A stretch of 64,000 nucleotides of DNA from a virus (IMGVR_UViG_2541047860_000002); one strand, 5' to 3'. Shown: positions 29,065 through 55,949, numbered from the stretch's first letter. The notes: generated by a model from the letters alone, not told the origin. Made by a program: numbers and translations.

Positions 29065-30288
29065 TTATTTCCCATAAAGATCTTCTACACCCCCATTCTT
29101 CTTATCCCATTCGTTCGCCCATACCCGGCAAGCGTCAATGATTTCCTGACGACGATCTCCTTGCATGAACGGGATGCTTTCATGGAAACAGCTTGGAATG
29201 CAGGCCACACTGAATACAGTATCAAACTCCGTCTGCTTGATTGCCTCCAGCGTCTCCGGACGCATTTTTAATTCATCGATTGGCGCATCCTTAGAGTCCA
29301 TAATCCGGCGATATAAGCGCGGAAAATCCGTCTCCAGGTACGCCATAATTTTATCTGCGAGACATTCGTCTATGTCGGTATTCCAGTCCTTTTCGAAGCC
29401 CGGCAGGCGATAGTAAAGCGGCGTTCCCCATACCGATGGGATCACATCCATCGTTAACAGGCGATTGGTTCTGATTTGTTGATGGTAATTAGCCGTCAAC
29501 AGTGCTTCGCCACGCTGCCCTGTTTCCGCAACCAGGCCGTGCGGATACTCATGGATGTAGGCAATGGCATCCCTTCCATCATACATGAGTGGAAATGTCT
29601 CTGGTCTTTGTCCCATGCCACAAGCACGGTTCAGATCGTGACCAAGCTGTGAGCACTCTCGCTTTAATGTTTCGATAATGCTCTGCGCTGTAGCCAACTT
29701 TTTACGCAGTGTGACGCCTTCGCCTTGATAATCAATGCATTGCTGATTGAGCTTGGTTAAACGCTCTTTTAGTTCCCTGCGCTCTCTTTTCAGCGTGCGG
29801 TTATCCTTCTCCGCAACATCCAGCCGCTTTGTCAGGCTTGGCGGATAGTCTTTTTTGTAACGGTTCAAATCGGCTTCGGCAGATTTACGCAGTGTATTTG
29901 CCTGTTCAAGACGCGCTTCCAGATTGCCGATCTCATTACGCATATTCGCGGCAAATTGATTAACTGCATCACCTAGGCTTTCAACTGTCGCTGATACGCC
30001 TGTGACTTGTGAAAAACGGATCAAGCCATCATTAACGGCTTGTTGGTATTCCTCAAACTGATCCACCAGCTTATTGTAATCAACTGCCCCATCATCAAGC
30101 AGCTTGTTGATTTCCGCCACCAGGTTATCTGTAGTGGCAATGACACTCTCGTGCAGTCGCTTTGACAGGTCATCACCCGGATTCCGTTTCTGTATAAGAG
30201 CGATTTGTGTGCGCAGCGTTTCAATTGCTGTCGAGATAATTTCCAGATTAGAAGTATCAGTGTGTTGACTCATTGCTGTTCCCGTCAC
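29065..30288 (-). CDS. hypothetical coiled-coil protein
   Basis: 407 aa; N-terminal ~230 aa heptad-rich, C-terminal globular part with conserved Cys/His; probable start at the internal ATG (30273). Confidence 0.5.
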   Translation of the reverse strand: MTGTAMSQHTDTSNLEIISTAIETLRTQIALIQKRNPGDDLSKRLHESVIATTDNLVAEINKLLDDGAVDYNKLVDQFEEYQQAVNDGLIRFSQVTGVSATVESLGDAVNQFAANMRNEIGNLEARLEQANTLRKSAEADLNRYKKDYPPSLTKRLDVAEKDNRTLKRERRELKERLTKLNQQCIDYQGEGVTLRKKLATAQSIIETLKRECSQLGHDLNRACGMGQRPETFPLMYDGRDAIAYIHEYPHGLVAETGQRGEALLTANYHQQIRTNRLLTMDVIPSVWGTPLYYRLPGFEKDWNTDIDECLADKIMAYLETDFPRLYRRIMDSKDAPIDELKMRPETLEAIKQTEFDTVFSVACIPSCFHESIPFMQGDRRQEIIDACRVWANEWDKKNGGVEDLYGK

Positions 30289-30311: not shown

Positions 30312-30386
30312 TATTTTATTAGTTTGATGACGGTATCGGAAGATGCAATAAACAAAAAACCCGCTAATTGGCTGGTTTTTATGCAA

Positions 30387-30701
30387 TTACTGTGTTGCAG
30401 CCTGATAAATAAGATACGCGATAAATACAGGTACGATGGCCCATTGCAGCAATGAAAGTAGCCTCATTACTGTTATTGGGGTAACTCCATCCACGTATTG
30501 TTTCTCTGACATTTTCCCTAACCAACTAACCGACAACAGTGCCGAGTTTTCCCCCAATTCCAGCTCTCTGAGAGCTTCACGGATTAACGGCGCTGTCACA
30601 GCCTTAACCGGCGTGCTCAACGTGATACTCCGCGTCCTCCCCGCATCGTCAGCGAACGCCAGACTCACATGATATTTTTTGCTCAATGCACAAACTCCCA
30701 A
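30387..30701 (-). CDS. hypothetical protein with C-terminal membrane helix
   Basis: 104-aa ORF. Confidence 0.4.
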   Translation of the reverse strand: MGVCALSKKYHVSLAFADDAGRTRSITLSTPVKAVTAPLIREALRELELGENSALLSVSWLGKMSEKQYVDGVTPITVMRLLSLLQWAIVPVFIAYLIYQAATQ

Positions 30702-30897
30702 TCATCAGCGCTTGCACTTTCCGGGGTTATGTGAACCTTATCGCCAGTAACAATATTGCGAGCTTCAAAACTTCCATTGATACGTTTCGAGATCTCAATA
30801 CATAGAGCCTGCTGCCATGAGCGACGACGAGCGATAGCATTAGTTCCTGCAGGGATAAGTTCTGCCACGTTAAGTAAACGCAAAACGATTTCTCCGT

Positions 30898-31393
30898 TTA
30901 ATCAAGACAAACATACTCCGTGATAGCTTTTATGGCTTCAGCGGCACTGCGCGCCTCAAAGCAGTAGTAACCGGCTTCAGTGAGGCGGGTCATCCAGACG
31001 AGTTGTTCGGGAGTCAGGCGATTTCTCCCATGTTTCATCTCAATGCGCATTCCGTGGTATCCCCCCACAAGCAAGGTCTATAGAAAGATCGGGATATCCC
31101 TTCTTTTGGCCCTCTGCCACCATTTTTATTGCCGTCCTTATGCCTCGCAGGCCACCGTTTGGAGTGGCGTGAGTATGCTCATACACATAACGCATATTGC
31201 GATACAACCAGTCCAGGACGCGAACCTGCTCGTAATGCTCATGGTTCCTTTTGATTAGATCTGGGTTTTTCTCCAGTTCTCTAAGAGCTGCGGCATGTGG
31301 GGATGTTTCAGAATATTCACTGCGACGCCTTCTCTTTCGCGCTATTTTTCTAACACACATATTGATAGTAAATATGCGAAATAATAACAACAA
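30898..31393 (-). pseudogene. VRR-NUC domain nuclease, frameshifted at a C6/G6 homopolymer
   Basis: N-terminal frame (track ORF 31040-31393) carries the conserved NGG and PDL motifs then stops; the C-terminal E-x-K and LTPEQ motifs continue in another frame to 30898; a 5-nt tract would restore one ORF. Confidence 0.55.
31347..31355 (-). promoter_or_regulatory. recurrent motif TTTCTAACA
   Basis: Lies within the first codons of the VRR-NUC reading frame. Confidence 0.3.
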
Positions 31394-31529
31394 CGTTAGA
31401 TTTATAAAACAAGAGAGATACTACTCAAGGATGGTCTATATGCAACAGGTCGGATTTGCTTTTAGAGTAAAGAGTGACCTTAATCAACAAGGAGGGTAAA
31501 TCGCATGGCATTTACCCAACCTGTTATTT

Positions 31530-31790
31530 TTAAAGGGTTATTTTATCCTGTTCGGATAATTCTTTGATTGTCTTGTCGATTGCGATCAACCAACCTTCAT
31601 AGGTTAAATCATCAACAAGTTCTACCAACTTATCATCGGTGTGAGGAAAGTATACCCAGCTCCAGTTCGCGGGGTTTTCTGCTTTTCGCAGCGTAAAAAC
31701 CTTCTTGTATCGGTGGAACTCAAGGACATACCCCTTCGATATGGAATATTCCTTTAGGTCTTCGACCGTAAACCTACGATTCTTTCGCAT
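31530..31790 (-). CDS. hypothetical protein
   Basis: 86-aa ORF downstream of the DarB-like gene. Confidence 0.4.
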   Translation of the reverse strand: MRKNRRFTVEDLKEYSISKGYVLEFHRYKKVFTLRKAENPANWSWVYFPHTDDKLVELVDDLTYEGWLIAIDKTIKELSEQDKITL

Positions 31791-31792
31791 GG

Positions 31793-32227
31793 CTACCCCA
31801 TGATTCGATATTTCTCTATAGACTCGTCGTAACTTGTGTACACGTATGGCTCTGTATCATCGGCATAAGGTGCGACTTCCAGAGCATGAACAGGATTGTA
31901 TACCGCGTCATTTTCCAGGCGATCGCTCGAATACAGATGCCCAGCCAAAACCGTAAGCGCCGGGCGACTCATTTTGTAGATCTCTGCCACATCACTATCT
32001 ACAACTTGTCCAAATGATATGTCGCCGCGCTCCAGCAATAACGTTTTAAGCGCAGGCCACCACGGCCCATAAAGGTGATAAAGCTGTGGATCTCGTTTCA
32101 GCCTTTCCACCATGCCATTCAGATATGCATCCAGAAACGCCTCTTCACTCCTGCCATTGAGCGCCTGCGGCAAAATGTCCTCAAGGTAGGATTCCGTCGG
32201 TTTTACAGTGTCAATTAGTGTCGTCAT
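31793..32227 (-). CDS. hypothetical protein
   Basis: 144-aa acidic ORF immediately after the DarB-like gene terminator. Confidence 0.45.
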   Translation of the reverse strand: MTTLIDTVKPTESYLEDILPQALNGRSEEAFLDAYLNGMVERLKRDPQLYHLYGPWWPALKTLLLERGDISFGQVVDSDVAEIYKMSRPALTVLAGHLYSSDRLENDAVYNPVHALEVAPYADDTEPYVYTSYDESIEKYRIMG

Positions 32228-32263
32228 TCAAATTCGGCCCCGGTTGGGGCCGCTCCTTATCTG

Positions 32264-35200
32264 TTAAGCCGCATCGGCGATTATTTTACGCAGTTCATCT
32301 ACCGAGTAACGCGTAGATACCATCCACGCCGGACGGTCAAAGTCCACATCCGCGACAGGATTCACTTCAAAATTCCAGAAACGCCCGCCAATCTTCTTAA
32401 TCGCGTCTTTGGCGTTCCGTATTGTCGAGGAACCTGGTTGGTCGGCAATGAGATAAACCGCGCCAACGTCCTCGCTGACGCTCCACCAGCGCCCGCGAAC
32501 ACGCGCCTTAGCGCGAATAGGCTTATCATTAACCACAATGATATAGTCATCATTTGCCGCTTCATCAGCTCTGGCTTCAGCCACTGCCGCCTGCTCTTCT
32601 CTTTTGCTTTCAGCCTGCTCAAGCCTTTCCGCGATCTCTGATTCAGTGGCCCCGCCGTTTTTCAGCGATACATAGTCCTGCCACGTTGCCGATTTGAGCG
32701 TATCCGGCAACTCATTCACATAGTCGCCATCTTTCAACTCACGGGCGCGGCGGGTAGCCATTTCTACCAGGCGATTAACAGAAACAGCATCAGCAAAATC
32801 GTCCTTACTAATGTGTTTTTCATCAAATGCATTGATGACAGCCCCCACCTTAATCCACTGTGCTGCCGGTGATTCCAGGGGGTTATCAGCCTGGACAATG
32901 GCGAGTTTCGCTCCATCTACCCCATTATTCGCCAACTGTTCCAGCGCCGCCCATCCATCTGCATCACTGAGTGATTTATATTGCTCAAACAATGCATCGC
33001 GCCAGGCCACCAGCGCAGAACGTGTTTTTTCGATCTTCGCCTTAATTTTCGCGATCTTGACCTGATTAAACATCCGTTCAATATCATCGATATTGCTAAA
33101 GGCTTTCATCCTGCCCTGGAATAAACGGTATGCCAGCACGGTCCTCCAGAATGATTCCAGACCTTCTCCGGACGGTTTACGGAACAAGCTAAGAATATCT
33201 TCAGAAGTGACTTTATTAAGCGAACGACCTGACAGACCACGCCCAGCCATCCAGTTTTCGAACTCCTTGGCAACATCATCCATCGTTGCCTGTGCGCCCC
33301 ATGCCTGCATTCCCTGGATGTAATCATACCCATACAATGCCTGGAGGAATCCCTCTCCGTCCACGATATTCAGCGGGTTATCACTGGCTTGTATTTTTGC
33401 CACTTCACGCTTCAGCGCCTCGTCGTTGCCATCAGGATATATCCATCGTTCAGGTGCTATATCCGATGCTCGCCCGATTTTTTGGCCTATCACGCCATCA
33501 TAGGTCGATGACAGCGCGATCTGCCCATCATCTGTGCGATAGGCCCAGTATTTAATAGCTGATCCACCGCCCCATGCATTACCAGGTTTACCAGCAATAA
33601 CATTCATTACCCCATTGCGAATAGCATCATAGAACTGATCGCGAGTAAGTATTGTTGATAGCTGGTGGCACTGAACACCACGCGCAGCCGTTGCGCGCGA
33701 TTCAGCAACCCCCTCTTCAAAAGTTACCGCTTCAATCACAGAGTCAAACGGCAATGTAACGATTGACCCCGGTGATCGAGCGTAACGACTTGCTCTATCC
33801 AGCCAGGCGATACGACAGATGTATTGTGCTTTTTCACCGTCAATTTTTTCCACCCGGACAATCGCTGTTGTTTCGCGATCATCAATGACTGCACGGTAAT
33901 AACTACCTTTATGCAACAGGATATTCTTGTCAGTGCGCATATATTCCTGTGGGTTCTGAATAACATCGATACTGATATCCAGCACACCAGACTTAATAGC
34001 GCGCTCCACATCACCACGAGAGCGTTTCATTATGGTATCCGCGTCTTTTGCCCTGGTGATCGCAAACCGCAGCACCCGCGCACGTTTTCTGTAGCTACTC
34101 AACTGCTCAAGCGCGTATTTTTGCCCATTCCTGTTCGTACCCGCTTTTATCAGGTCGTCAAGATTGCGCTGGTAATACTCTATCTGTTCCATCGCGCTTT
34201 TCAGTTCTGTCTCCATCATGCCGATATCTTTTCCGGCGGCGTTTGCCGCTTTCAGGTAGATATCGAGAGCATTGTTGGCCTCGCGCTGTGCTTTCAGTTT
34301 CAGACGTTCTTCACGCTCTTGCGCCTGGCGAGCCATGATTGCGCGGCGTTCTTCCGGGTTTGCCGCCAGCATAATGGCGCGTTCATCAGCATCATCCACA
34401 TCACCATTGGCGATCTCTGACATGTCGGAGGTCATCACCATCTTGATCCAGTCTTTCTTACGTTTCAGCGTATCCAGACGGAAGTCGTCGAATGTGCCTT
34501 TGCCACAATAGTAGTGAACATTGACCTTCTCTTGCGGTGAACCTACGCGCGCACCGCGCCCATTTCGTTGGTCGATACTGGCTGGTGTCCAGGGTAGTGT
34601 CAGGTGGTGGATATCGGTTGTCCCGATGTGCAGGTTAATACCTACTTCAGCCTTCTTGTTACAGATTATGATGCGCGTGCGACCTTCGTTATAGTCGGCG
34701 GCAATACCTTCCATGCCCTCAAGGCCAGCATCATTTTTAGCTGAGAGATAATCCTCATATTGGGCAAGTTTGCTGTAGTAGGTTTCCCATGCCCCTTCTT
34801 TGTATTCACCGTTTTTGTTTGGAGTAGGTTCGGTCGGCTTATTCACCTTCTTCAGCTTGATGCCGCCAGCCTGGCTAACTGTCGTCGCATTGATAATGCC
34901 AATCTCCTGCTCCGGCATTTGCAGTGCACTGGCGATAATACGGCGCAGCTTCTGGTGCTGGGCTTTTTCATCAATAAAGACGATCTGCTTACCGTTCTTC
35001 AGACCTTCACGAAGATTTTCGATCAGCGCGGCATACTTCGGCGGGATGGGGTGCGATACCTGCTGCATATCAATACCGGCAGCCGCAATGGCCTTCAGTA
35101 TTTCAGCTTCCAGTTCAATGCTGGCACGTATTTCAACATGCGTCGGATGTTCACTAAAAGCGGTCTTCACTACCTTGCTGGTACGCGTACTGACCAGCCC

Positions 35201-38200
35201 GCCAGCGCCGTCTTCCTCGGCCTCATCAACATCATCTGCCACTTTACCACCAGCTACTTTTGGCAAGGCATCAGCAATAGCTTTTACCTGGTCTGCAAGC
35301 TCAACGGGGAACTGGAATGTAATCGCACTGGCATACAGATCCGGGTCTATAGCAACCTTGTCCATGTCACGGATGATGGAGAAGATGAAATCATCCGGTT
35401 TGTCGTTAGTGATATGCCCGTTTTCATCGACTGTCAGCTCATCATTGCGACTTAACTCCTGAGCACGCTTACGAAGTTCTTCATAAGCAGACTCCTGCTC
35501 CCCTGTCATCGGGATCTGCAAGGTGTTCTCGATGATGTCGGGAATTTTAACCGTCGCTCCGACATCTGCGGCAGTCTTCAGAGTGGTCCAACGATGGAAA
35601 ATACCACGCAGGCCATCAAGGTTCTGGAAGCCCACCAGCCCCTGCTTCTCTTCCACTTCCCCGGAAATTTTCTGGACCTGAACTGTGGCTGTTTTGCCAA
35701 ACACACGAACGAAATCATCAGGCGTAATGATGCCCATGCGCATCCACTCTTCCTGCGGAATGACAGTAGACAGCATGTTGAAGGCATCAATCGGACTGTT
35801 CACCAGCGGAGTTGCCGTCAGCATGACTACACCACGTCCGTTGTTGCGTTTCATCATGTACGCAGCTTTTACAGCCATGTCGCGGGCCATCTTGGATACT
35901 GCCGGGTTAGGCAAATATGCCAGTTGTCCCGCTTCACGCCCGGCATTAAAGGAGTTGCGGTAGTTATGCCCCTCGTCGGCAATCACGCTATCGAAGTTCA
36001 TATCCTCAAAGTACGGGATATTCTGCTTCTTCGTTGTACCGGTATTCGCGGCCTGATCCTTAATCTTGTTCTTCTTCTGTGCATCACGGTGTTTGCCAGA
36101 CGCCAGGTCAAGACGCCCCATTTCCACAGCATTAAAGACAGCTTGCTGTGAGTTCTCCTCGATGGTTTTTTCTCGTAGCGGGATAGACGCGAATTGTTCT
36201 TTTGTCATGATGACCGTTCGCCAATTTGACGACGGGATCATGTTCATGCGCTGAACGATAACGGCGCTGGCGGACTCTTTCACAACATTTCTGGTAAGAG
36301 GCTGCCCGTTACTGTCGAGGCGTGGTTCGCCATTTTCATCAAGCACCGGCGCGGTCAGAATATTTCCGCTGTCATCACGAACTTCATCCAAACCGATAAA
36401 CATCATATTGGCGAAGGCATCAGCACTGTAGAAACTCTGTGCCTCGTGATACCAGTTCTGATAAACCGCCTTCGGAACAACAATACACGTGCGTTTAGTG
36501 CGACCTGTTTCGAAGTTATACGCCTCAAGCGCAAGCGCGGTCGTGGTTTTACCCAGCCCGGTACCAAATCCCATGATGCCGCGCCCATCTTCTGACAAGC
36601 GACGAACTTCTTCATTTTGATAAGTCAGAGGAATGCGCTTTCCACTAATCCCTTCCAGGCCAAGCGGTGCGTTAGAGTGCGTGAACGGAATGAAGCCATT
36701 GAATGCGTCGTTATAGTCACGGGCTATCTGATCCGCCTGCGGGTGGGTGCGTAACCAGTCGTTAAAGCTAACTTCCAGTTGAGCAATTTTATCCAGGTAC
36801 TCGTTAGCGTTCTGCCCACGCGGTTTAACACCGTTCAGGTAGTTTTCTAACTGGTTCAGGAAGCCGTCTTTATTGTTGGCCTTCTTGAACTCATTCCCGT
36901 TTTTGCCGTTTACGGTTCGTAGCTGATAGCCGGTAAATACCCCGTCCTTACCTTCGTAATCGTCCGGAGATACCAGAATGCCATCGACGACCTTCAGATC
37001 AGGTTCAGTGTACTTAAACTCGTCATAGCCCTGCTCTGCCAGGAACTCTTTTATCAAGCGGCGATCCAGCCAGCGGGCATTCAGATTAACGGTGACTTTA
37101 TTTAGTGGCGTGAAAATGCGTTTCTCTTCGATTTTCGCCAACTGACGCTCAAAGTTCGCTTTCTGCTCACCTGTTGACGCATCACGCCAGCCCACCAGCA
37201 ATGCTGTTTTGGTTGCAATATCGCCGCTGGTGGCGCGGTCCATCGGCAGCAGGCAGCCATACCCATCAATAGCGATATCATCAAATTTCGCTAGGTATTC
37301 AAGGGCCGCGTCGTCGTCCTCTGGCAATTCACCAGCAAACGCCTCACGAAAGTCGCCCAGCGTTATAGGATTAAGGGCTACATCACTGAAAAGATGTGCT
37401 ATCACTTGTTCAGGACGTGTAAAGTCAATACCGGCAGCACCATCCGTTACATCAAGTCGCCCTGCCAGAAGGTCAGAAGTGGAACCATCCTGTTTCACAT
37501 TGCCAGTGAACGTCATCCAGTTTTTAGCGCCAGCTTCAGCAAGCCCATTCAGCTTAATCGCGTGCGGTGGTCCATACTTCGCAACTTCTGCTGCCGCCAG
37601 GCGGGATGCATCTGCCAGTTTGTCATCAACGTTCACCCCCAGGTTACGCAAATCAAGTGCCTTGTTGATCAACTGCCCTATCAGCGCACCGCGCATAACG
37701 CGCTCTCTGTCTTTTTCTCGCTGCTTGCCAGCAAAGCGAATCATTGCTGCCACTTCATCACTGACAACCGATGGATAGTCGGACGCGATCGCCGATATCT
37801 GGTCCCATGACAAAGCCAGAATCCCGTTTGTTGACTGGAACGCGATCTGCAGATCGCCAAACGTCGAAACACCATATCGACTTACATCAAGCGCGGAGGA
37901 TTTGGTTGTCGTGTCCTTAACCCATTTCAGGCCATCAAACTCATGCCAGATACCGCCTACAAGGCGTTTATCGCCCACTTTCGCGCCCTGCCATGCCTGA
38001 GTAGTTACGCCGAGCAAATCCCAATTGATGCGACTATCAAAGCGACGAGATAGCGCGGTTTTCATCGACTCATTGGATACACGGCCGTCTTTTTTCACCA
38101 CTAGGGTATTGCGGAAGCTGGTACGTTCCATGTCGCCGTAAACAAACCGCTTCCCTTCGGTTGTAAACCATTTTCCTTTGAGGAAGGTATCCCAAAGGAC

Positions 38201-39100
38201 GTTTGCCGATTTGAGCGTGGCATCATCCGTGTCGGGGATCATCTCCAGGAAGGTTTCCGGGTGTTTACGCAATACCCATACGTCCACCACGGTATCTGTA
38301 CCGGATTCGCTGAACGTACCAGAAGGCATACGATGTGCGGCCAAAAATTCCGCTTTACGGCTGACTTTATCGCGCAATTTTTTGTATTTCGTACCATCGG
38401 TCATGCCATTCGGCACCACCAATACGATAAGCCCACCAGGCTTAACCTTGTCGATCGTGCGCAACACAAAATAATTGCCAACGTTCTTCTCGTTTGCATA
38501 TGCCGGATCAAGCCCGGCAACGCCGGAACGCCCTTCACCAAACGGTACGTTACCAACAGCGTGGTCATACATTGCATCTTTCGCCGCCAGCGCCTCAAAC
38601 GCCCCGATATTCACATCGTCTTCCGGGTGCAAAAGCTGGTTTATTCGACCAGAAATCGGAGACAGTTCGGCGCTGGTCATTATCATGCCCTGCCGTTTTG
38701 TCTCCTGGAAAATACCTGTGCCCGCTGATGGTTCCAGTACGTGCCCGCCATCAATACCGTAGTCAGCAAACAGATCCCATATACCTTCAGCCATAAACTG
38801 TGGCGTGTAGTATTCGTATTGGCTGCCCTCACCATCTGTCAGGCCGCCTTCACCGGTATACCCGGCAAGAATCTGACGTTGTTCGTCAGTTAATTTCGCC
38901 CCATCGAAGCCGGGCGGAAGGGAATTAAGAAGATTTACTGCGGCGTTGTTTGCTGCACGGCGTGTTTTCTGAATACTGACGCCATCGGCTTTCCTGACGC
39001 CAAAGGTCGCAACAGCACGTAATTTATGCAACCGACTAACAATTTCAATCAGTTCGCCTAAGCTGGAGGCTTCACTGATTGAATGAAGTAATTTGTCCAA
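32264..39100 (-). CDS. darB: DarB-like anti-restriction protein (N6-adenine methyltransferase plus DEAH helicase)
   Basis: 2278 aa; methyltransferase motifs (EPSAGTG, NVPFG), Walker A GFGTGLGKT, DEGH box; size and architecture match P1 DarB as recalled. Confidence 0.85.
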   Translation of the reverse strand: MDKLLHSISEASSLGELIEIVSRLHKLRAVATFGVRKADGVSIQKTRRAANNAAVNLLNSLPPGFDGAKLTDEQRQILAGYTGEGGLTDGEGSQYEYYTPQFMAEGIWDLFADYGIDGGHVLEPSAGTGIFQETKRQGMIMTSAELSPISGRINQLLHPEDDVNIGAFEALAAKDAMYDHAVGNVPFGEGRSGVAGLDPAYANEKNVGNYFVLRTIDKVKPGGLIVLVVPNGMTDGTKYKKLRDKVSRKAEFLAAHRMPSGTFSESGTDTVVDVWVLRKHPETFLEMIPDTDDATLKSANVLWDTFLKGKWFTTEGKRFVYGDMERTSFRNTLVVKKDGRVSNESMKTALSRRFDSRINWDLLGVTTQAWQGAKVGDKRLVGGIWHEFDGLKWVKDTTTKSSALDVSRYGVSTFGDLQIAFQSTNGILALSWDQISAIASDYPSVVSDEVAAMIRFAGKQREKDRERVMRGALIGQLINKALDLRNLGVNVDDKLADASRLAAAEVAKYGPPHAIKLNGLAEAGAKNWMTFTGNVKQDGSTSDLLAGRLDVTDGAAGIDFTRPEQVIAHLFSDVALNPITLGDFREAFAGELPEDDDAALEYLAKFDDIAIDGYGCLLPMDRATSGDIATKTALLVGWRDASTGEQKANFERQLAKIEEKRIFTPLNKVTVNLNARWLDRRLIKEFLAEQGYDEFKYTEPDLKVVDGILVSPDDYEGKDGVFTGYQLRTVNGKNGNEFKKANNKDGFLNQLENYLNGVKPRGQNANEYLDKIAQLEVSFNDWLRTHPQADQIARDYNDAFNGFIPFTHSNAPLGLEGISGKRIPLTYQNEEVRRLSEDGRGIMGFGTGLGKTTTALALEAYNFETGRTKRTCIVVPKAVYQNWYHEAQSFYSADAFANMMFIGLDEVRDDSGNILTAPVLDENGEPRLDSNGQPLTRNVVKESASAVIVQRMNMIPSSNWRTVIMTKEQFASIPLREKTIEENSQQAVFNAVEMGRLDLASGKHRDAQKKNKIKDQAANTGTTKKQNIPYFEDMNFDSVIADEGHNYRNSFNAGREAGQLAYLPNPAVSKMARDMAVKAAYMMKRNNGRGVVMLTATPLVNSPIDAFNMLSTVIPQEEWMRMGIITPDDFVRVFGKTATVQVQKISGEVEEKQGLVGFQNLDGLRGIFHRWTTLKTAADVGATVKIPDIIENTLQIPMTGEQESAYEELRKRAQELSRNDELTVDENGHITNDKPDDFIFSIIRDMDKVAIDPDLYASAITFQFPVELADQVKAIADALPKVAGGKVADDVDEAEEDGAGGLVSTRTSKVVKTAFSEHPTHVEIRASIELEAEILKAIAAAGIDMQQVSHPIPPKYAALIENLREGLKNGKQIVFIDEKAQHQKLRRIIASALQMPEQEIGIINATTVSQAGGIKLKKVNKPTEPTPNKNGEYKEGAWETYYSKLAQYEDYLSAKNDAGLEGMEGIAADYNEGRTRIIICNKKAEVGINLHIGTTDIHHLTLPWTPASIDQRNGRGARVGSPQEKVNVHYYCGKGTFDDFRLDTLKRKKDWIKMVMTSDMSEIANGDVDDADERAIMLAANPEERRAIMARQAQEREERLKLKAQREANNALDIYLKAANAAGKDIGMMETELKSAMEQIEYYQRNLDDLIKAGTNRNGQKYALEQLSSYRKRARVLRFAITRAKDADTIMKRSRGDVERAIKSGVLDISIDVIQNPQEYMRTDKNILLHKGSYYRAVIDDRETTAIVRVEKIDGEKAQYICRIAWLDRASRYARSPGSIVTLPFDSVIEAVTFEEGVAESRATAARGVQCHQLSTILTRDQFYDAIRNGVMNVIAGKPGNAWGGGSAIKYWAYRTDDGQIALSSTYDGVIGQKIGRASDIAPERWIYPDGNDEALKREVAKIQASDNPLNIVDGEGFLQALYGYDYIQGMQAWGAQATMDDVAKEFENWMAGRGLSGRSLNKVTSEDILSLFRKPSGEGLESFWRTVLAYRLFQGRMKAFSNIDDIERMFNQVKIAKIKAKIEKTRSALVAWRDALFEQYKSLSDADGWAALEQLANNGVDGAKLAIVQADNPLESPAAQWIKVGAVINAFDEKHISKDDFADAVSVNRLVEMATRRARELKDGDYVNELPDTLKSATWQDYVSLKNGGATESEIAERLEQAESKREEQAAVAEARADEAANDDYIIVVNDKPIRAKARVRGRWWSVSEDVGAVYLIADQPGSSTIRNAKDAIKKIGGRFWNFEVNPVADVDFDRPAWMVSTRYSVDELRKIIADAA

Positions 39101-39250
39101 AGGATTTCCCCCTCTAAACCGTAAAAATTCCGCTATGCGGTACGGTTGAGAGGGTATGGAGAATGTTATTTTCAGGGGGACGATACTACCGTCAAAATCA
39201 CATACTCCCCATAGTTTGCCTACTTATTAACCCATGACCGGGAGAAAAAT

Positions 39251-39736
39251 ATGGCAAACATTGAACCTCGCTGGCTAATTGAAGCCCGTAAGCACATTGG
39301 CCTGACTGAAATAAAAGGCGCTAAACACAACCCTGAAATCGTTCAGTTCTGGCGCGACATCAAGCGCGGCGGAATTAAAGACGATGAAACGCCGTGGTGC
39401 GCAGCATTTGTCGGTGCAATGCTGGAACGTGTAGGCATCCGCTCAACAAGATTTGAGTCGGCAAAATCCTATCTGGATTGGGGCGAGAAATTAGATACAC
39501 CGGCATACGGATGTATCGTTGTATTTACCCGCGTAGGCGGTGGGCACGTAGGCTTCGTTGTCGGACGCCGCGCCAATGGCGATCTGCTTGTCTTGGGTGG
39601 GAACCAGGGGGATGCGGTTAATATTCGCGCATTCCCAACATCAAGAGTGTCAGGCTATCGCTGGCCTGCTGGCGAACCACGCAATACCGCTCTGTTACCA
39701 GTCGGAGACGCAGCAACCTCAACTAATGAGGCATGA
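39251..39736 (+). CDS. putative cell-wall hydrolase-like phage protein
   Basis: 161 aa with a conserved Cys (WCAAFV) and His (GGGHVGFVV) suggestive of a CHAP/NlpC-P60-type fold; assignment tentative. Confidence 0.4.
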   Translation: MANIEPRWLIEARKHIGLTEIKGAKHNPEIVQFWRDIKRGGIKDDETPWCAAFVGAMLERVGIRSTRFESAKSYLDWGEKLDTPAYGCIVVFTRVGGGHVGFVVGRRANGDLLVLGGNQGDAVNIRAFPTSRVSGYRWPAGEPRNTALLPVGDAATSTNEA

Positions 39737-39741
39737 AAAAA

Positions 39742-39760
39742 GCCCCGGCCAGGCCGGGGC
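39742..39760 (-). terminator. rho-independent terminator
   Basis: GCCCCGGCC-A-GGCCGGGGC hairpin with T-run on the minus strand. Confidence 0.55.
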
Positions 39761-39768
39761 ATCACGCT

Positions 39769-39969
39769 TCAAGTCACGATCCAATCATTACCGACAATAT
39801 CAGCCGTCGATAAATCAACTTCCCGGATCTGGAGTCCATTAATACAAAACCATCCGGTAGTAGAGTAATTATCAGGCCAGGCCCATACACCAACACTCCA
39901 TGCTTTACGGCGGCACACTTCAGCCTGTCCTTCCCTGATTTTTTTTACCGCCTGCATGATGTCCATCAC
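39769..39969 (-). CDS. stand-alone DUF2829-like W-rich protein
   Basis: 66 aa homologous to the C-terminal extension of the 2387-3328 protein; start overlaps the stop of the upstream Rha-like gene. Confidence 0.5.
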   Translation of the reverse strand: MMDIMQAVKKIREGQAEVCRRKAWSVGVWAWPDNYSTTGWFCINGLQIREVDLSTADIVGNDWIVT

Positions 39970-40673
39970 TCACCTCCCCAACCGATCACCTGGAATTGCC
40001 CCATTTTTGGGTGATACCAACGTTTTCCTCGGTGTTCAGCCTCCGACATCATCCGGTTAAAAGCATTCATGAAGGGAGATAAGGCGACGATGGAACGACG
40101 CGACAATACCCCCTCTGGAGTTAAAAACTCATGTGTATCTGTGGGAATCCGGTAAGCGTTGACAAGGTTGCGGCATTTGGCTTCGGTCAGGCCGCATTTC
40201 GCCGCCAGCTGGCGGTAGCCAATGTAACCTTCCGGCATGTTGCCCTTCTTGATTTGCTCGACGGTTTCTACCACCTGGCTAACCTTTGACTCAACAACAT
40301 GAAGCCGCTTTTGCTGCTGAACTGCATTTGCAGCCATTGCGGCGATCATCTCTATTTCGGTCAACGGCTGGCGTACTTGTTCTTCCAGTTCGCGCCAGCG
40401 GTCCACCAGCCGGGCGGTGAATTCCGGAGAGAGCTGCGCAACGACAATGATACTGTCACGCTTGCCTTGTTCGCCTTCGAAGACGTAGTGTGAATTTTTA
40501 ACTTTAAATCCTAAGTTATTGATATTTTCGGAAACCTCCATTGGAGGAAGTGGAATAACACCTGATTTACTCAAGCGTTCAATAGTGCGTTTAACGTTAT
40601 CCGGGCGACTTCCCACCAGCTCCGCGATCTCAATGCTGGTCATTGATGGCTTTTCAAGAATGCAGATTTCCAT
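39966..40673 (-). CDS. Rha-family phage antirepressor-like protein
   Basis: 235 aa; paralogue of the N-terminal part of 2387-3328 with long stretches of near-identical DNA. Confidence 0.7.
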   Translation of the reverse strand: MEICILEKPSMTSIEIAELVGSRPDNVKRTIERLSKSGVIPLPPMEVSENINNLGFKVKNSHYVFEGEQGKRDSIIVVAQLSPEFTARLVDRWRELEEQVRQPLTEIEMIAAMAANAVQQQKRLHVVESKVSQVVETVEQIKKGNMPEGYIGYRQLAAKCGLTEAKCRNLVNAYRIPTDTHEFLTPEGVLSRRSIVALSPFMNAFNRMMSEAEHRGKRWYHPKMGQFQVIGWGGE

Positions 40674-40897
40674 CAGTGTGCCTCCGCAATTCCGGGATTG
40701 GTAATATTGCGATACCAGGGATTAGTGTTTGGTTGTGGGGAAGTAGAGAAACGACCAGTAAGAACACCATACTGATCAGGGATCAGAGAACGGGCTTCTT
40801 TTTCGGTTGCGGCAATTGCGAAGTGATCGCAGTGTTTTTGCAGGGAGTGGAAACGCCAGATGAATTCTGGACGTGAGCAAGGATTGGCATTAACCAT
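40673..40897 (-). CDS. small conserved prophage protein
   Basis: 74 aa; paralogue of 3328-3543. Confidence 0.5.
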   Translation of the reverse strand: MVNANPCSRPEFIWRFHSLQKHCDHFAIAATEKEARSLIPDQYGVLTGRFSTSPQPNTNPWYRNITNPGIAEAH

Positions 40898-41248
40898 AGT
40901 TACGGCCTCACTAACAGGTTTAACAACCTGCTACCCGCTGTCAAACAGGTGGCAGGACGTGACAGGGTTGACAGACTGGCGTTAGTGAAACCAGCAGGCC
41001 GAAGCCTCCCCATCACGCCCCACCATAATTCGGGCGTAACGCGGTTTACGGACACAAAAATACCGCAATATCGGAAATCTGCGGTTGTCCGCACTAACAT
41101 TCAGGCTGTCAAACCTGGTCGCAGAATTTGCTACGACGGCATGAATATAAGCCTGAAAACATGGAAGATCAACTAAAAAATTTCAGCAATGGATGACTTC
41201 AGTCGATGATGCAGATCATACATTCCGATTTAGAAACAGCAAATTAAT

Positions 41249-41257
41249 TTTCTAACA
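41249..41257 (-). promoter_or_regulatory. recurrent motif TTTCTAACA
   Basis: Intergenic, upstream (minus strand) of the antirepressor cassette. Confidence 0.35.
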
Positions 41258-41311
41258 CAAATCATCGAGCGAGCATTTTCCGATCATTGGGATGCTTTGT
41301 AGACACACAGG

Positions 41312-42274
41312 TCATCCCCTAAATCCCGCAGGGATTGACCAATCCTCCCGGTCAAATTCAGACCGATAGCCACGTTGTTTCATCAGGTCAAAGGCTTCAC
41401 CAATGGTTACACACCCCTGGGAGCCAGAATAATCCATTGAGAAATCCAGGGCACTGGATTGTTTAGGCTTATTCACTGCGGTAGCGGCACTACGTATCCA
41501 TGCAAATTTTTTTGCCAGCTTTTCAGCGGTACGATACAGAGCCTGCCGTTTTGCGTGCCCCTCGTCTGAACGACGCTTTGCAGCTCTCGCTTTTGCCGCC
41601 GCCAGGCAGTGGTTGGTATGTTCTTCCCTGATTACTGTTTTTTTATCCAGTCCCCCATTATCCGCTTGAGTACTATCTGCTGGTGAAGCCTTTGGCTGAA
41701 CCGCGCATGATCTTTCTCTTCTTTTGGCTATAGAGTGACTCTTATTTTCTATTGGCTGTTCATTTTGAACATGGGGGGACTTGTTCAATTTGAACAGGGG
41801 GTTCCCAGTTTCAAAAAAATAACGTACCTTTGAAATCAATTGCTTAACCAGCTTTGTGGCGTTGGCAAATTTGATGCCCTGCTTACCCCCTATCTCCATT
41901 GCTACATGAATGAAGTGGAGAAATTGTGTCGTAAACCGATATACGTTACACACCTGGGCATTGTTATTCGCTACCTGATGTTGCTTAACAAGCATTCCGC
42001 ACTTCGTCGCTTCAGCAAATGCCCGGCGCACAGTAGAAATGCTGCGTCCTGTAATCTCGGACATATCAGCATATGAGCGACGGATCATGTATTCATCGGT
42101 AGACCCTGCCAGGTTGGCGAACTCGGCAATAATGGCGCTATGTGAAGGGGAAAGAAGACCGCTATGACGAGCAAAAAAACTCAACTGATGACCTTTGATT
42201 TTTTTGTGGTATTCAGTGTTGTTTTTATACTCAGAAGTGTTGAAAGTTACTGAAACTGAATTTAAAATACTCAC
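41312..42274 (-). CDS. HTH-containing protein, possibly RepL-like replication initiator
   Basis: 320 aa with an HTH segment (ADMSEITGRSISTVRRAFAEATKCGML) resembling RepL-family initiators; recurrent motif upstream. Confidence 0.4.
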   Translation of the reverse strand: MSILNSVSVTFNTSEYKNNTEYHKKIKGHQLSFFARHSGLLSPSHSAIIAEFANLAGSTDEYMIRRSYADMSEITGRSISTVRRAFAEATKCGMLVKQHQVANNNAQVCNVYRFTTQFLHFIHVAMEIGGKQGIKFANATKLVKQLISKVRYFFETGNPLFKLNKSPHVQNEQPIENKSHSIAKRRERSCAVQPKASPADSTQADNGGLDKKTVIREEHTNHCLAAAKARAAKRRSDEGHAKRQALYRTAEKLAKKFAWIRSAATAVNKPKQSSALDFSMDYSGSQGCVTIGEAFDLMKQRGYRSEFDREDWSIPAGFRG

Positions 42275-50506: not shown

Positions 50507-51067
50507 ATGCTTATTGGATACATTCGCGTATCAACTAATGACCAAAACACCGCTTTACAACGAAACGCCCTTGAAAGCGCAGGATGTGAGCTAATTTTTG
50601 AGGATAAGGCGAGCGGCAAAAAGGCTGAACGCCCAGGGTTAAAAAAGGTTCTCCGTATGCTTTCCAGAGGTGACACCCTAGTCGTATGGAAGTTAGATCG
50701 TCTTGGGCGCAGCATGCGTCACTTAGTTGTGCTGGTGGAAGAGCTGCGTGACAGAGGCATTAACTTCCGGAGTCTCACTGACTCCATCGACACCAGTACA
50801 CCAATGGGGCGCTTTTTCTTTCACGTAATGGGGGCGCTGGCAGAAATGGAACGTGAGCTTATCGTTGAACGTACACGCGCTGGACTTGATGCAGCTCGCG
50901 CAGAAGGTCGTATAGGTGGGCGTCGGCCTAAATACCAAGAAGAAACATGGCAGCAAATGCGGCGATTGCTCGAGAAGGGCATCCCCCGTAAGCAGGTTGC
51001 AATCATCTATGATGTGGCTGTTTCCACGCTTTATAAGAAGTTTCCGGCGTCATCATTTCAATCCTAA
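50507..51067 (+). CDS. serine DNA invertase (Cin/Gin/Hin/Pin family), copy 1
   Basis: 186 aa; N-terminal MLIGYIRVSTNDQ catalytic-serine motif and C-terminal HTH; 3' end runs into the left cix-like site. Confidence 0.9.
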   Translation: MLIGYIRVSTNDQNTALQRNALESAGCELIFEDKASGKKAERPGLKKVLRMLSRGDTLVVWKLDRLGRSMRHLVVLVEELRDRGINFRSLTDSIDTSTPMGRFFFHVMGALAEMERELIVERTRAGLDAARAEGRIGGRRPKYQEETWQQMRRLLEKGIPRKQVAIIYDVAVSTLYKKFPASSFQS

Positions 51068-51084
51068 ACCTTGGTTTAAGAGAA
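51059..51084. other. cix/gix-like inversion crossover site (left)
   Basis: CAATCCTAAACC-TT-GGTTTAAGAGAA, 12-2-12 imperfect inverted repeat. Confidence 0.55.
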
Positions 51085-51114
51085 CTCGGTACCAGTGGTG
51101 AAAAGATCCCCCTG

Positions 51115-52650
51115 TTGAGCACGGCTAACACATGGAGTGCGCGCCAGACTTTCAACGGCGGGATCACCGGGGCGCTGACAGGGAACGCCGATACCGCGAC
51201 GAAATTGAAAACAGCCAGAAACATTAATGGCGTCAGGTTCGATGGTTCGGCTGACATTAATATCAATACTCTGGTATCACGCGGTCGAGTAACTGCTCTG
51301 GCGTCGAATGCGCAGGGGACATCCGGGATTCAGCTGTATGAGGCATACAACAATGGCTACCCTTCCCCCTATGGCAATGTGCTTCACCTTAAAGGTGCCA
51401 CCGCTGCTGGCGAAGGTGAGTTATTCATTGGCTGGAGTGGCACGAGCGGTGACCATGCGCCCGTACATATCCGTTCGCGGCGGGATACTGATTCTGCCAA
51501 CTGGTCTGAATGGGCGCAGGTCTATACGTCAAAAGATTCCGTTCCCGGCGTTAATACCAAAGGGAATCAGGACACCTCTGGTAATGCGGCTACAGCGACC
51601 AAATTGCAGACAGCACGTACTATTAACGGTGTCTCGTTTGATGGTTCTAAAAACATTGAGCTAACAGCGGAAGATTTAAATCTTGAGCAAACCGTAGAAT
51701 TAGCCGCTGGATCATTGCAGAAAAACCAGAACGGCGCAGATATTCCAAACAAAGATAAATTTACGCAAACAATAGGTGCTTGCCGCTCTTTTCATGGTGC
51801 TATTAGCACAGGTGCAGGAAACTGGACGACGGCACAATTGATTGAATGGCTGGATTCTCAAGGGGCATTCAATCACCCATACTGGATGTGCAAATGTTCA
51901 TGGTCATACGGCAATAATAAAATTATTACCGATACTGGCTGTGGAACTATTCATCTTGCAGGTTGCGTTATTGAGGTTATGGGTAATAAAGGTGCCATGA
52001 CTATCCGTGTAACCACCCCGAGCACTTCCAGAGGTGGCGGAACTACTAATGCACAATTTACTTATATAAACCATGGCGCAGATTACGCACCAGGCTGGCG
52101 GCGTGACTACAGTACCAAAAATCAGCAGCCTGCATTTGCTTTAGGGCAGACAGGAAGCACTGTTGGAAATGACAAAGCTGTTGGATGGAACTCAATTAGT
52201 GGCGTTTATAATGCGACTATTGGTGGAGCATCAACATTGATTCTTCACTTTAATATGAATGCGGGGAGTTGCCCTGCTGTACAGTTCCGTGTGAATTACA
52301 GGAACGGTGGTATTTTTTATCGTTCAGCGCGTGATGGTTACGGATTCGAAGCTGACTGGTCAGAATTTTACACCACAACACGCAAGCCATCAGCAGGAGA
52401 TGTTGGTGCATATACCAAAGCGGAGGCGGACTCCCGTTATGTACGTGATATCCGACTTGGTGGCGCATCATCATACAAACCAGCAAATAATGGCACAACA
52501 TGGACACATCAGGCTCCATCTGGTTGCGCATATACCGGAATAATTGTTCAGGATACAGGCTCAAACTCTGCCGATAATATTGGTGGTGTTTATTACAGAC
52601 CAATTCAAAAAAATATTAATGGCACATGGTATAACGTATCGAGTATTTGA
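51115..52650 (+). CDS. tail fibre variable C-terminal segment (Sv-like), no constant part attached
   Basis: 511 aa from a TTG; frame is open back through the cix site to a stop at about 51034 with no ATG. Confidence 0.65.
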   Translation: MSTANTWSARQTFNGGITGALTGNADTATKLKTARNINGVRFDGSADININTLVSRGRVTALASNAQGTSGIQLYEAYNNGYPSPYGNVLHLKGATAAGEGELFIGWSGTSGDHAPVHIRSRRDTDSANWSEWAQVYTSKDSVPGVNTKGNQDTSGNAATATKLQTARTINGVSFDGSKNIELTAEDLNLEQTVELAAGSLQKNQNGADIPNKDKFTQTIGACRSFHGAISTGAGNWTTAQLIEWLDSQGAFNHPYWMCKCSWSYGNNKIITDTGCGTIHLAGCVIEVMGNKGAMTIRVTTPSTSRGGGTTNAQFTYINHGADYAPGWRRDYSTKNQQPAFALGQTGSTVGNDKAVGWNSISGVYNATIGGASTLILHFNMNAGSCPAVQFRVNYRNGGIFYRSARDGYGFEADWSEFYTTTRKPSAGDVGAYTKAEADSRYVRDIRLGGASSYKPANNGTTWTHQAPSGCAYTGIIVQDTGSNSADNIGGVYYRPIQKNINGTWYNVSSI

Positions 52651-53186
52651 TTATGATGCATTTAAAAAACATAAAGCCAGGCAATCCAAAAACCGAAGAG
52701 CAATATCTTTTAACTAAAAACTCAGGCGTCGTCTGGTTATGGACCGAAGATGGTAAGAACTGGTATGAGGAACAAAAGAACTTTCAGGAAGACACCATAA
52801 AGATTGCATATGATGAAAATAATGTTATATGCGACGTGCAAAAGGATGTGACTGCAATTTGCCCGGAGGGAAAAAGTGTCGTTGAGGTTCCTGATATTAC
52901 AGCAAATCGCCGGGCTGATATTTCGGGTAAATGGATGTTCAAAGATGGCGTAGTGATAAAGCGAACTTATACCGAGGAAGAGCAGAGGCAACAAGCGGAA
53001 AATGAAAAGCAAAGCCTGCTACAGCTCGTCAGGGATAAAACACAGCTATGGGACTCACAGTTACGGCTGGGTATCATTTCCGACGAGAATAAACAAAAAT
53101 TAACCGAGTGGATGCTCTATGCGCAGAAGGTCGAATCCACAGACACCTCCAGCCTGCCAGTAACATTTCCCGAACAACCAGAATGA
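52647..53186 (+). CDS. tail fibre assembly protein
   Basis: 179 aa; paralogue of the convergent ORF 53215-53742. Confidence 0.75.
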   Translation: MIMMHLKNIKPGNPKTEEQYLLTKNSGVVWLWTEDGKNWYEEQKNFQEDTIKIAYDENNVICDVQKDVTAICPEGKSVVEVPDITANRRADISGKWMFKDGVVIKRTYTEEEQRQQAENEKQSLLQLVRDKTQLWDSQLRLGIISDENKQKLTEWMLYAQKVESTDTSSLPVTFPEQPE

Positions 53187-53214
53187 GAGAAGGCCCGATA
53201 TCGGGCCTTAATTT

Positions 53215-53742
53215 TTATTCAGGCTTTTGTGGCCATTCAGGATTTGCCGTATCCACACGGCTGACCAGAACACTGTAGCGTTCCCATGACTCCAGTCGTG
53301 CGCGTTCCTCATCCGTCGCCATATTCAGCCTGACAGCGCGTTCCAGTGGCTGAATAACGCTTTCTGCTTCGGAAAGTAACGCGGCCTTTTGTGATTCGGC
53401 CTGTTGTTGCTGTTCATCTGCCGTATAAATCCGTTTAACCACAGCTCCGTCCTTAAACATCCACTTCCCTGAATCATCGGCACGACGATTGGCTGTTATG
53501 TCGGGAACCTCAACGACGCTAAAACCTTCAGGGTTAAGCGTGGAGGCATCTTTGGTGATGGCGACAATAATATTATTTTCATCGTAAACAATCTTTATGG
53601 TGTCTGGCTGAAAGTTTTTCACTTCCTCATACCAGTTTTTTTCGTCCTCAGAGTAAAGCCAGATGACTCCGTGCTTCTTTGTTAACTCATACTGATCCAG
53701 TGTTTTAGCATTACCCGCTTTTATGTTCTTTAAGTGCATCAT
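53215..53742 (-). CDS. tail fibre assembly protein (alternative)
   Basis: 175 aa, mirror-image partner of 52647-53186. Confidence 0.75.
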
Positions 53743-53743
53743 A

Positions 53744-54754
53744 TTAAACGCTCGCTACATTATACCAGGTGCCATTTATATACTTTTGAACGGGTCTGTA
53801 ATAAACGCCCGCTATATTATCGGCAGAGTTGGACCCTGTATCCTGAACATTAATACCAGACAATACATGACCTGACGGGCACTGGAAATTCCATGTTTGC
53901 CAGTTGTTTACTCCATAATATTGCTGTGAACCAAGTCGAACATCTTTCACATAACGGGAATCAAAGTTACCGTAATCCGAGGGATTAACACGCCCTGTAA
54001 TATTTATGGTTTTATTACTTTGAATGCTGCCGGAGACAAAGCGCATAACATGGACGTTATTAGCATAAACGTCCAGATTACCGTCGCCATTTTGTTTAAA
54101 GCCCGTGTCATTATCACCCAAAACAATCGAGTTACCGCCAAGAGCACTGGATGTTCCGATACCCAATGCACCATTCAATTGACCGCCAGATAATGACAAC
54201 GCCCCAACCTCAGCAGCAGTCGGTTTAATGTGCGAACTGTAAATTACATATACAGTTCCATCTGTCAGGCCTGTTGGTTTATTCGCTGTATAAGTTGGTG
54301 ATGTATGAATTTGTACAGTTGCATCCTTTGTATAATCCCACTGGATATTAACACCTGTGGCGTAATTACCTATTTTTACATAAATGTCATAGGTATCACC
54401 GGATGTATTCACCCATGCAAAATTAGTAAATCCAACCGAGGTCCGTCGCCATAATGCACCAGTAAGACCTTTTGGATTTCCATTTCCCGCACGAAGAACA
54501 AGTTCAGATATACCAGCCTGCATAGGGGAGTTAACATTATATCCAGCACCACCAATCAGACTTATGTAAACCACGGAACTGGCTTGTGGCATTGTTACAG
54601 TTGCCAGTTTGAACCATCCAGCACCACCACTAAAAGACATGGTTGTTGAATTTGTTGTGCCGATATTACGCAGGAATAGTTTTTTATCGGGAATATCTGC
54701 GCCGTTCTGGTTTTTCTGTAATGCGCCAGAAGCCTGATTTACCGTTTCCTGCAA
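53744..54754 (-). CDS. tail fibre variable C-terminal segment (alternative), no constant part attached
   Basis: 336 aa from a TTG inside the right cix site; a stop lies 3 codons upstream; shares the [12 protein letters not shown] block with the other variable segment. Confidence 0.65.
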
Positions 54755-54771
54755 ACCGAGGTTTTAGATAA
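54746..54771. other. cix/gix-like inversion crossover site (right)
   Basis: TTCCTGCAAACC-GA-GGTTTTAGATAA, close to the Mu gix sequence as recalled. Confidence 0.7.
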
Positions 54772-54825
54772 TGGCCGTTTCTGACCTGCATGGCATGATT
54801 TACGCTTTTGGACGGGAGATTCAGC

Positions 54826-55413
54826 GTGCTGATTGGCTATGTAAGGGTATCAACAAATGACCAGAATACAGACCTGCAACGAAACGCTCTTGTTTGTGCA
54901 GGATGTGAACAAATATTTGAAGATAAATTAAGCGGGACAAAGACAGACCGACCGGGATTAAAACGCGCTTTAAAGCGCCTTCAAAAAGGTGACACGCTGG
55001 TTGTCTGGAAACTGGATCGCCTCGGGCGAAGCATGAAACATCTGATTTCTCTCGTCGGGGAACTACGGGAGCGAGGGATTAATTTTCGCAGTCTGACCGA
55101 CAGCATAGATACATCTTCTCCAATGGGACGTTTTTTCTTCCACGTGATGGGTGCCCTGGCTGAAATGGAACGTGAATTAATTGTTGAACGTACACTGGCC
55201 GGACTGGCAGCAGCGCGCGCACGGGGGCGCACAGGCGGACGTCGCCCGAAGCTGACAAAAGAACAGCATGAGCAAATAGCAAGGCTGATTAAAAACGGTC
55301 ACGACAGAAAACAACTGGCAATAATTTACGGCATTGGTACATCGACGATTTATCGTTACCACCCCGCAGGAGAATCAAGCGGAACAATAGAGAAGAGTCA
55401 GAAAACAAAATAA
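54826..55413 (+). CDS. serine DNA invertase (Pin/Gin-like), copy 2
   Basis: Probable GTG start giving (M)LIGYVRVSTNDQ; catalytic-serine and HTH regions conserved; the track ORF starts at an upstream TTG (54808). Confidence 0.9.
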   Translation: MLIGYVRVSTNDQNTDLQRNALVCAGCEQIFEDKLSGTKTDRPGLKRALKRLQKGDTLVVWKLDRLGRSMKHLISLVGELRERGINFRSLTDSIDTSSPMGRFFFHVMGALAEMERELIVERTLAGLAAARARGRTGGRRPKLTKEQHEQIARLIKNGHDRKQLAIIYGIGTSTIYRYHPAGESSGTIEKSQKTK

Positions 55414-55441: not shown

Positions 55442-55448
55442 TGTTAAA

Positions 55449-55943: not shown

Positions 55944-55949
55944 GACTCC

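Follow-up and report, generated by a model that had tools for sequence, protein, structure and literature searches.

We identified in the analyzed stretch of 64,000 nucleotides (hereafter the window) a frameshifted gene of the VRR-NUC nuclease family, which is very probably a genuine, inherited loss-of-function allele of a PmgM-type nuclease undergoing ordinary decay in a D6-like phage-plasmid of E. coli. The gene is broken by one extra base in a G homopolymer. The first-pass annotation, made from this DNA alone, had placed the break at the plus-strand C6 tract at 31061-31066, and the sequence, the translations and a Pfam search with the repaired protein bear this out.

The minus strand around the tract reads GGA TAT CCC GAT CTT TCT ATA GAC CTT GCT TGT GGG GGG ATA CCA CGG AAT GCG CAT TGA. 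The N-terminal frame, read from TTG 31393 or ATG 31360, encodes ...GYPDLSIDLACGG followed by IPRNAH and a TGA stop (31042-31040); six sense codons thus lie beyond both GGG codons, and not two codons past the tract as had been proposed. Past G6 the remainder of the protein, YHGMRIEMKHGRNRLTPEQLVWM...VCLD, lies in the +1 frame, which reads YHGMRIEMKHGRNRLTPEQ...VCLD down to a TAA stop (30900-30898). The translations therefore confirm the earlier claim that the Glu-x-Lys and C-terminal motifs continue in another frame as far as 30898. Deletion of one G in silico produces a single ORF of 164 codons (from TTG 31393) or 153 codons (from ATG 31360), and the prediction that a tract of five would give one intact protein also holds: the G5 repair yields a protein of 153-164 aa that passes the VRR_NUC threshold. 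In the intact gene, the G run supplies the two glycine codons of ACGGYHG, which lie between the Pro-Asp and Glu-x-Lys motifs. A complete E-PD-ExK set with its Gln is not present on any single polypeptide of the window, as the G6 frameshift parts E-PD from ExK-Q, and because the active-site motifs are split in this way the locus is a pseudogene of the VRR-NUC family and not a functional member. Runs of G or C are common in the window (5 of at least six bases and 60 of at least five); the tract is notable because nearly all relatives have G5 and an intact gene, not because of the run itself.

Table 1. Positions of the disrupted nuclease gene, its parts and its neighbors in the window
Feature	Position	Strand	Basis or remark
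darB-like gene, 2278 aa, intact	32264-39100	minus	ORF list, annotation transfer
ulx-like gene	31793-32227	minus	ORF list, annotation transfer
orf13	31530-31790	minus	ORF list, annotation transfer
Terminator-like hairpin GGGTAAA...TTTACCC	31494-31517	minus	between orf13 and nuclease gene
Sigma-70-like promoter match, TTTATA-16-TATTAT with TG	31381-31408	minus	consensus match only
Disrupted pmgM-like VRR-NUC gene	30898-31393	minus	maximum span, TTG 31393 to TAA 30898
Candidate start codons of nuclease gene	TTG 31393, ATG 31360, TTG 31207	minus	ORF list and translations
A5 run near 5' end of nuclease gene	31345-31349	minus	A4, A5 or inferred A6 among relatives
N-terminal fragment	31040-31360	minus	106 aa counted from ATG 31360
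First catalytic Glu region, EHYEQ	GAG 31238-31240 / 31229-31231	minus	N-terminal fragment
Pro-Asp, CCC GAT	31088-31093	minus	N-terminal fragment
C-terminal ORF, open frame	from TTG 31074	minus	ORF list
G6 homopolymer (plus-strand C6)	31061-31066	minus	+1 insertion relative to G5 of intact relatives
C-terminal fragment, +1 frame	30898-31050	minus	50 aa from ATG 31050
Glu-x-Lys	GAG 31039-31041, AAA 31033-31035	minus	C-terminal fragment
Conserved Gln	CAA 31003-31005	minus	C-terminal fragment
orf11	30683-30883	minus	ORF list, annotation transfer
pmgR-like gene	30387-30701	minus	ORF list, annotation transfer
pmgS-like gene	29065-30288	minus	ORF list, annotation transfer

The family assignment was supported by several comparisons. 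The repaired protein scores 26.4 bits against Pfam VRR_NUC (PF08774; cut-off 23.8), and both fragments fall under that cut-off, the C-terminal one with 17.5 bits and the N-terminal one with no score. A tblastn search of phage P1 (AF234172) matched PmgM at 57% identity over residues 18-152 (88% of the query), which together with the alignment identifies the gene as an ortholog of P1 pmgM. The repaired protein is also 99% identical to phage D6 orf12, which is annotated as 'similar to P1 gene pmgM' over the same span as the window gene. Its PHROG matches are 2363 (E=1e-48) and 5702 ('Holliday junction resolvase'), and a match to PDB 4QBL (E=1e-13) aligns GYPDL...YHGxRIExK, with GYPDLSIDLACGGYHGMRIEMK of the repaired protein opposite GYPDLIIDIARGAYHGLRIEIK of the structure.

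Stand-alone VRR-Nuc proteins of phages and bacteria are dimers that cleave four-way junctions, with an E-PD-ExK active site stabilized by a conserved Gln; this dimeric activity is known for psNUC, stNUC and saNUC only (PMC4103454). PmgM gave its name to one VRR-Nuc subfamily (Iyer et al. 2006, cited in PMC9635880), and the searchable literature yielded no experimental work on PmgM function in P1 or D6. Homology makes a dimeric resolvase of Holliday junctions or branched DNA the most likely identity of the intact protein. The structurally characterized comparator is psNUC, a Psychrobacter VRR-Nuc (PDB 4QBL; Pennell et al. 2014, PMC4103454), which shares the catalytic core GYPDL...YHGxRIExK...Q and cleaves four-way junctions symmetrically as a dimer. 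It is ~40% identical to the window protein; the window allele cannot make the full domain, and the activity of the D6 and P1 proteins is predicted. P1 PmgM (AAQ14056.1) has the same E-PD-ExK-Q layout and late-gene context, but it is longer (192 aa) and reads GGN ATT TAT CAC (Gly-Ile) at the frameshift site, so the G run is not a conserved feature of the family. The nearest relatives, with 99-100% nucleotide identity, are intact: phage D6 orf12 (D6_12, ASR76323.1) is the same gene in the same position but has G5, and the gene for a 'VRR-NUC domain-containing protein' in pRHB39-C21_3 is identical to that of the window except for its tract, which is also G5.

The element that carries the gene is a D6-like, P1-related phage-plasmid, and the best matches of the window are ~90-kb non-mobilizable plasmids of E. 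coli, Salmonella and Shigella, plus phage D6. On the minus strand the gene order is darB - ulx - orf13 - pmgM - orf11 - pmgR - pmgS, as in D6-like relatives. The nuclease gene had been described as lying in the DarB operon. It is indeed downstream of darB, on the same strand as the darB/ulx group and adjacent to it, but in the reference phage P1 it belongs to a different late operon (pmgL-pmgV), where pmgM (78850-79428) follows pmgL and its promoter LPpmgL, beside gene 26 and not beside darB. The 136-nt gap after orf13 contains both the terminator-like hairpin, which is invariant in 22 sequences and has a weak T tract, and the promoter-like site, which lies immediately before the 5' end of the nuclease gene or overlaps it; both are consensus matches only. 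Orf13 has no similarity to PmgL that would indicate a conserved pmgL-pmgM unit, and comparison with P1 LPpmgL gave no convincing match to a P1-type Lpa late promoter upstream of the nuclease gene. Given the signals in the gap, the different location in P1 and the dissimilarity of orf13 and PmgL, membership in the DarB operon is unproven and no link to DarB is implied.

Other features of the element were noted in passing. At position 30373 the window alone has A on the minus strand, whereas all 20 other sequences covering the site have C; the substitution disrupts the stem of a terminator-like hairpin, AAAAACCCGCC-AATTA-GCGGGTTTTTT, after the pmgR-like gene. Positions 52000-64000 are not D6-like and match the tail module of a P2-like prophage (tape measure, sheath, tube and gpD), which resides on the chromosome in 202 complete E. 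coli genomes (coverage of 80% or more, ~93% identity) and also occurs in two small 'plasmid' records, CP054252 and CP054244. The junction lies within ~51061-53971, in an invertible tail-fibre segment that is common to both elements and is inverted relative to CP057047; it stems from either chimeric assembly of the contig or genuine recombination or integration. A TnpB gene (insQ, of the RNA-guided endonuclease family) lies between the ddrA-like and ddrB-like genes of p13ZX28-90 and p1_000837 (3667-4875 and 3666-4874 of the retrieved stretches, respectively) and is absent from the window and D6.

Tract length was compared across related elements, as the first-pass annotation had suggested, and nearly all have G5. 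In PLSDB, 98 of 99 plasmids were not identical to an 80-nt probe and all 59 listed span 79 bases (G5), the sole G6 exception being CP042632.1. All 78 plasmids from complete E. coli genomes have G5, as do all 15 IMG/VR contigs and all 8 metagenome contigs recovered with a pattern permitting G4-G10; a search of GTDB species-representative contigs for a tract of any length returned 0 matches and is uninformative. Taken together, at least 98% of the ~200 sequences sampled without bias, which come from E. coli, Salmonella, Shigella, viromes and metagenomes, have G5; this is a rough estimate given that the collections overlap, and broken alleles (including G6 and G4) make up ~1% of these collections.

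The A run near the 5' end of the gene also varies. It is A4 in Salmonella pMFDS1011659, Shigella STLIN_12 and two IMG/VR contigs, and 15 of the top 60 PLSDB matches are 899 and not 900 bases long, the same length as pMFDS1011659 and STLIN_12; A6 is implied by a database protein that starts with MLEKIARK. A4 closes the long N-terminal frame with an in-frame TAG just before IARKRRRR, so either the true start is further downstream or the A4 plasmids make an N-terminally truncated protein. Start choices in databases give nuclease proteins of 98, 102, 125, 152 and 163-165 aa.

Exact look-ups that used the two fragment proteins of the window as queries recovered the G6 allele elsewhere. In NCBI, ENA and Logan, 114 contigs have a gene call for the 50-aa C-terminal product, and the 106-aa N-terminal product with its IPRNAH tail occurs on three (GCA_907175305 and two Logan assemblies). 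Exact G6 occurs in assemblies GCA_009332055, GCA_016555485, GCA_011803325, GCA_907175305, GCA_032369795 and GCA_048144435 and in Logan assemblies of runs SRR5759647, SRR13156631 and ERR2138297. Counting the three Logan assemblies of raw runs, no fewer than nine other independent assemblies thus carry the allele, and six share the exact gene haplotype of the window. Homologs that are split as well, which the first-pass annotation had regarded as the mark of a stable pseudogene, are essentially what was found.

A 1.6-kb alignment of 22 sequences resolves five gene haplotypes with G6, and for two of them an exact twin with G5 exists. The first (H1) comprises the window, GCA_016555485, GCA_907175305, GCA_032369795, SRR13156631, ERR2138297 and GCA_048144435, the last placed separately from the alignment, and has pRHB39 as its G5 twin. 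GCA_009332055 and SRR5759647 form H2, and GCA_011803325 (H3) is H2 plus two SNPs. CP042632 (H4) has D6 as its G5 twin, and CP042620 (H5) has TGC plus G6 on a divergent background; both come from error-rich records and may be artefacts. The reliable haplotypes would correspond to two or three origins of G6 (H1 and H2/H3), on at least two reliable backgrounds, and short-patch recombination could lower the number. The SNPs that distinguish H1 from H2/H3 flank the tract, at 75 nt on the downstream side and 293 nt on the upstream side, which makes two slippage events more parsimonious than a very short recombination patch.

Many lesions other than G6 were recovered. Specifically, we identified a G4 allele (GCA_034326805), a GGA to TGA change in the tract that creates a stop (TGT GGG TGA; GCA_032412665), three different 1-base deletions (GCA_045883065, GCA_054252235 and GCA_053726075), an 11-base deletion (GCA_050107055) and an Asp-to-Ala change of the catalytic GYPDL to GYPAL in an intact ORF (GCA_048653105). 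In GCA_021699765 the ORF is also intact and GGYHG is changed to GGCHG at a conserved position; this allele and the GYPAL allele may be naturally catalytically dead or weakened. Among the truly broken loci sampled, G6 accounts for 9 of 15 and G4 for 1 of 15, making the G run the main hotspot within a sample that was chosen for truncated gene calls and carries no information on frequency. We infer that, relative to other positions in this gene, the run is a slippage hotspot.

Gene calls in public records proved an uneven guide to the state of the locus. The 46-aa calls were rejected as a proxy for a broken gene, since the ORF is intact in 5 of 10 sampled loci, where the 46-aa 'hypothetical protein' called inside the intact nuclease ORF is an annotation artefact. 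Contig counts of 98-aa 'VRR-NUC' clusters were rejected as a denominator of intact alleles because the clusters represent a different sublineage (ARGGYHG...NLD). The typo 'norphogenetic' in the P1 pmgM note (AF234172.1) recurs in the product names of other records, and the 90%-identity cluster of the 50-aa and 46-aa fragments includes a 726-aa Aspergillus protein with a 6-phosphofructo-2-kinase domain, presumably a clustering artefact.

The first-pass annotation had offered three explanations for the split, of which inactivating mutation is supported, sequencing error is all but excluded for the window and phase variation as a regulated switch is unsupported. Codon differences between divergent G5 lineages are 9-10 synonymous versus 2-3 non-synonymous, which suggests that the intact gene is maintained by purifying selection. 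Apart from the tract, the H1 alleles match their G5 twin pRHB39 completely and carry no secondary mutations, so the pseudogene appears to be young.

An alternative is that loss is positively selected because the nuclease is costly or toxic while the element is a plasmid-prophage, or is attacked by a host system, and the element is being domesticated to a plasmid. That 20 sampled loci yielded nine or more distinct lesions, inactivating or in the active site, in a gene of ~0.5 kb would fit this idea, and decay of phage-plasmids into plasmids has already been described (PMC10879196). However, the loci were picked for truncated gene calls, so that the lesion count is a biased rate; broken alleles stay at ~1% while intact alleles appear to be under purifying selection; and the rest of the window's lytic module looks intact. 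We consider selected loss unlikely.

Homopolymer contingency loci are classically known from phase-variable genes of Neisseria, Haemophilus and Campylobacter, and their tracts are typically at least 7-8 bases long. The window gene resembles them in having a frameshift in a coding G/C homopolymer with +1 and -1 variants in the population, several of the backgrounds with G6 have G5 twins that are otherwise identical, and the A run shows that a second homopolymer in the gene is polymorphic. Slipped-strand phase variation, with the nuclease ON at G5 and OFF at G4 or G6 and possibly with a contribution of the 5' A run, is nevertheless very improbable. The functional run is only 5 bases (6 in the broken allele), far shorter than known contingency tracts and one of the 60 G/C runs of this length or more in the window; a single length dominates among the unbiased relatives; the P1 ortholog has GGN ATT in place of a run; and the unrelated knock-outs include irreversible lesions (stop codon, deletions and an active-site substitution). 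A long tract, common length variation and conservation of the tract in orthologs, three features by which contingency loci are recognized, are absent. In the form of a low-rate ON/OFF switch of a Holliday-junction-resolving nuclease, based on the G5 run and perhaps the A run, the idea is still quite improbable; if true, a phage-plasmid lineage would hedge lytic competence against cheaper or safer carriage as a plasmid. In a weaker version of the switch reading, convergent loss of PmgM may have been positively selected as an early step from phage-plasmid to plasmid.

The extra G could also be a homopolymer miscall from sequencing or assembly, in which case the gene would really be intact. Consistent with this, ~99% of relatives have G5, and the only complete plasmid with TGT plus G6, CP042632.1, is visibly error-rich, with 57 CDS versus ~110 and several other homopolymer differences. 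The window also has two further +1 homopolymer differences, at 41175 and 50496 (relative to 4-10 relatives). Against a miscall, six further independent assemblies or runs, among them Logan contigs built from reads, carry the identical allele on the identical SNP haplotype. Over 11 kb (window positions 30374-41360), the 91-kb contig of GCA_907175305 shows 3 SNPs and 0 indels relative to the window, so both G6 and the A6 at 41175 are shared. Of the window, ~45 kb could be aligned to CP057047; this portion contains no further indel that disrupts a gene, and darB is intact. An error in this tract is therefore highly unlikely. These comparisons are of assembled sequences, and the source isolate could still hold a mixture of G5 and G6.

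The homopolymer differences of the window at 39175, 41175 and 50496 were checked in up to 10 relatives. That at 39175 is not private to the window. At 41175, which is intergenic, the window has A6 versus A5 in 10 of 10 relatives, and A6 is also present in GCA_907175305; at 50496, also intergenic, it has G7 versus G6 in close relatives, and this position is outside the GCA_907175305 flank that was compared. We rejected the idea that the window is error-rich, given that the 39175 difference is not private and the 41175 A6 is common to GCA_907175305. Judged from these alignments, the 41175 A6 and the G6 are lineage markers and not miscalls. Records CP042632.1, CP042620.1, CP058777.1 and NZ_CP127300.1 do look rich in homopolymer errors. 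Such D6-like records have 57 or 78 CDS versus ~106-112 in relatives (125 features in phage D6) and several run-length differences within ~100 bases, and darB appears as two CDS in pAPEC201603. The frameshifts of these complete-plasmid records should not be counted as biology.

That the split gene is still active, through programmed +1 frameshifting, transcriptional slippage or a two-piece enzyme, is scarcely credible: a P-site tRNA-Gly that sits on the first GGG could slip one base downstream in G6 and still pair perfectly, which would restore the wild-type sequence, and the C-terminal fragment has its own ATG after the G-rich run, but relatives use one continuous frame with no conserved slippery signal, neither fragment reaches the Pfam threshold and the active site is divided between the two.

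Returning to ordinary decay, we envisage the following course of events. Replication slippage would have added one G to the G5 run, and the resulting frameshift between Pro-Asp and Glu-x-Lys would leave neither fragment able to form an active nuclease. The intact enzyme may be used in lytic replication, recombination or packaging. If it is not needed for plasmid maintenance, broken alleles could persist in plasmid-carrying lineages; the nuclease would then be important for the lytic cycle and horizontal spread and not for vertical inheritance of the plasmid. On reliable backgrounds, the +1 event probably occurred two or more times, and a -1 (G4) allele exists too. Knock-outs that are rare, young and recurrent fit a lytic-cycle gene in which recurrent mutation is balanced by selection.

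Both the family and the type of element are already known, and this is a real but ordinary pseudogene allele, whose importance is largely confined to annotation. The appropriate label for the locus is a frameshifted PmgM-type VRR-NUC pseudogene and not two small 'hypothetical' or 'norphogenetic' proteins, and its G6 tract should not be 'corrected' as an assembly error. Together, G6 and the 41175 A6 provide a usable lineage marker for a subgroup of D6-like plasmids. The natural G6, G4, stop-codon and Asp-to-Ala alleles are ready-made mutants for studies of PmgM. Overall, the locus is a small, clean example of how the lytic genes of a plasmid-prophage would decay at short homopolymers under vertical inheritance.
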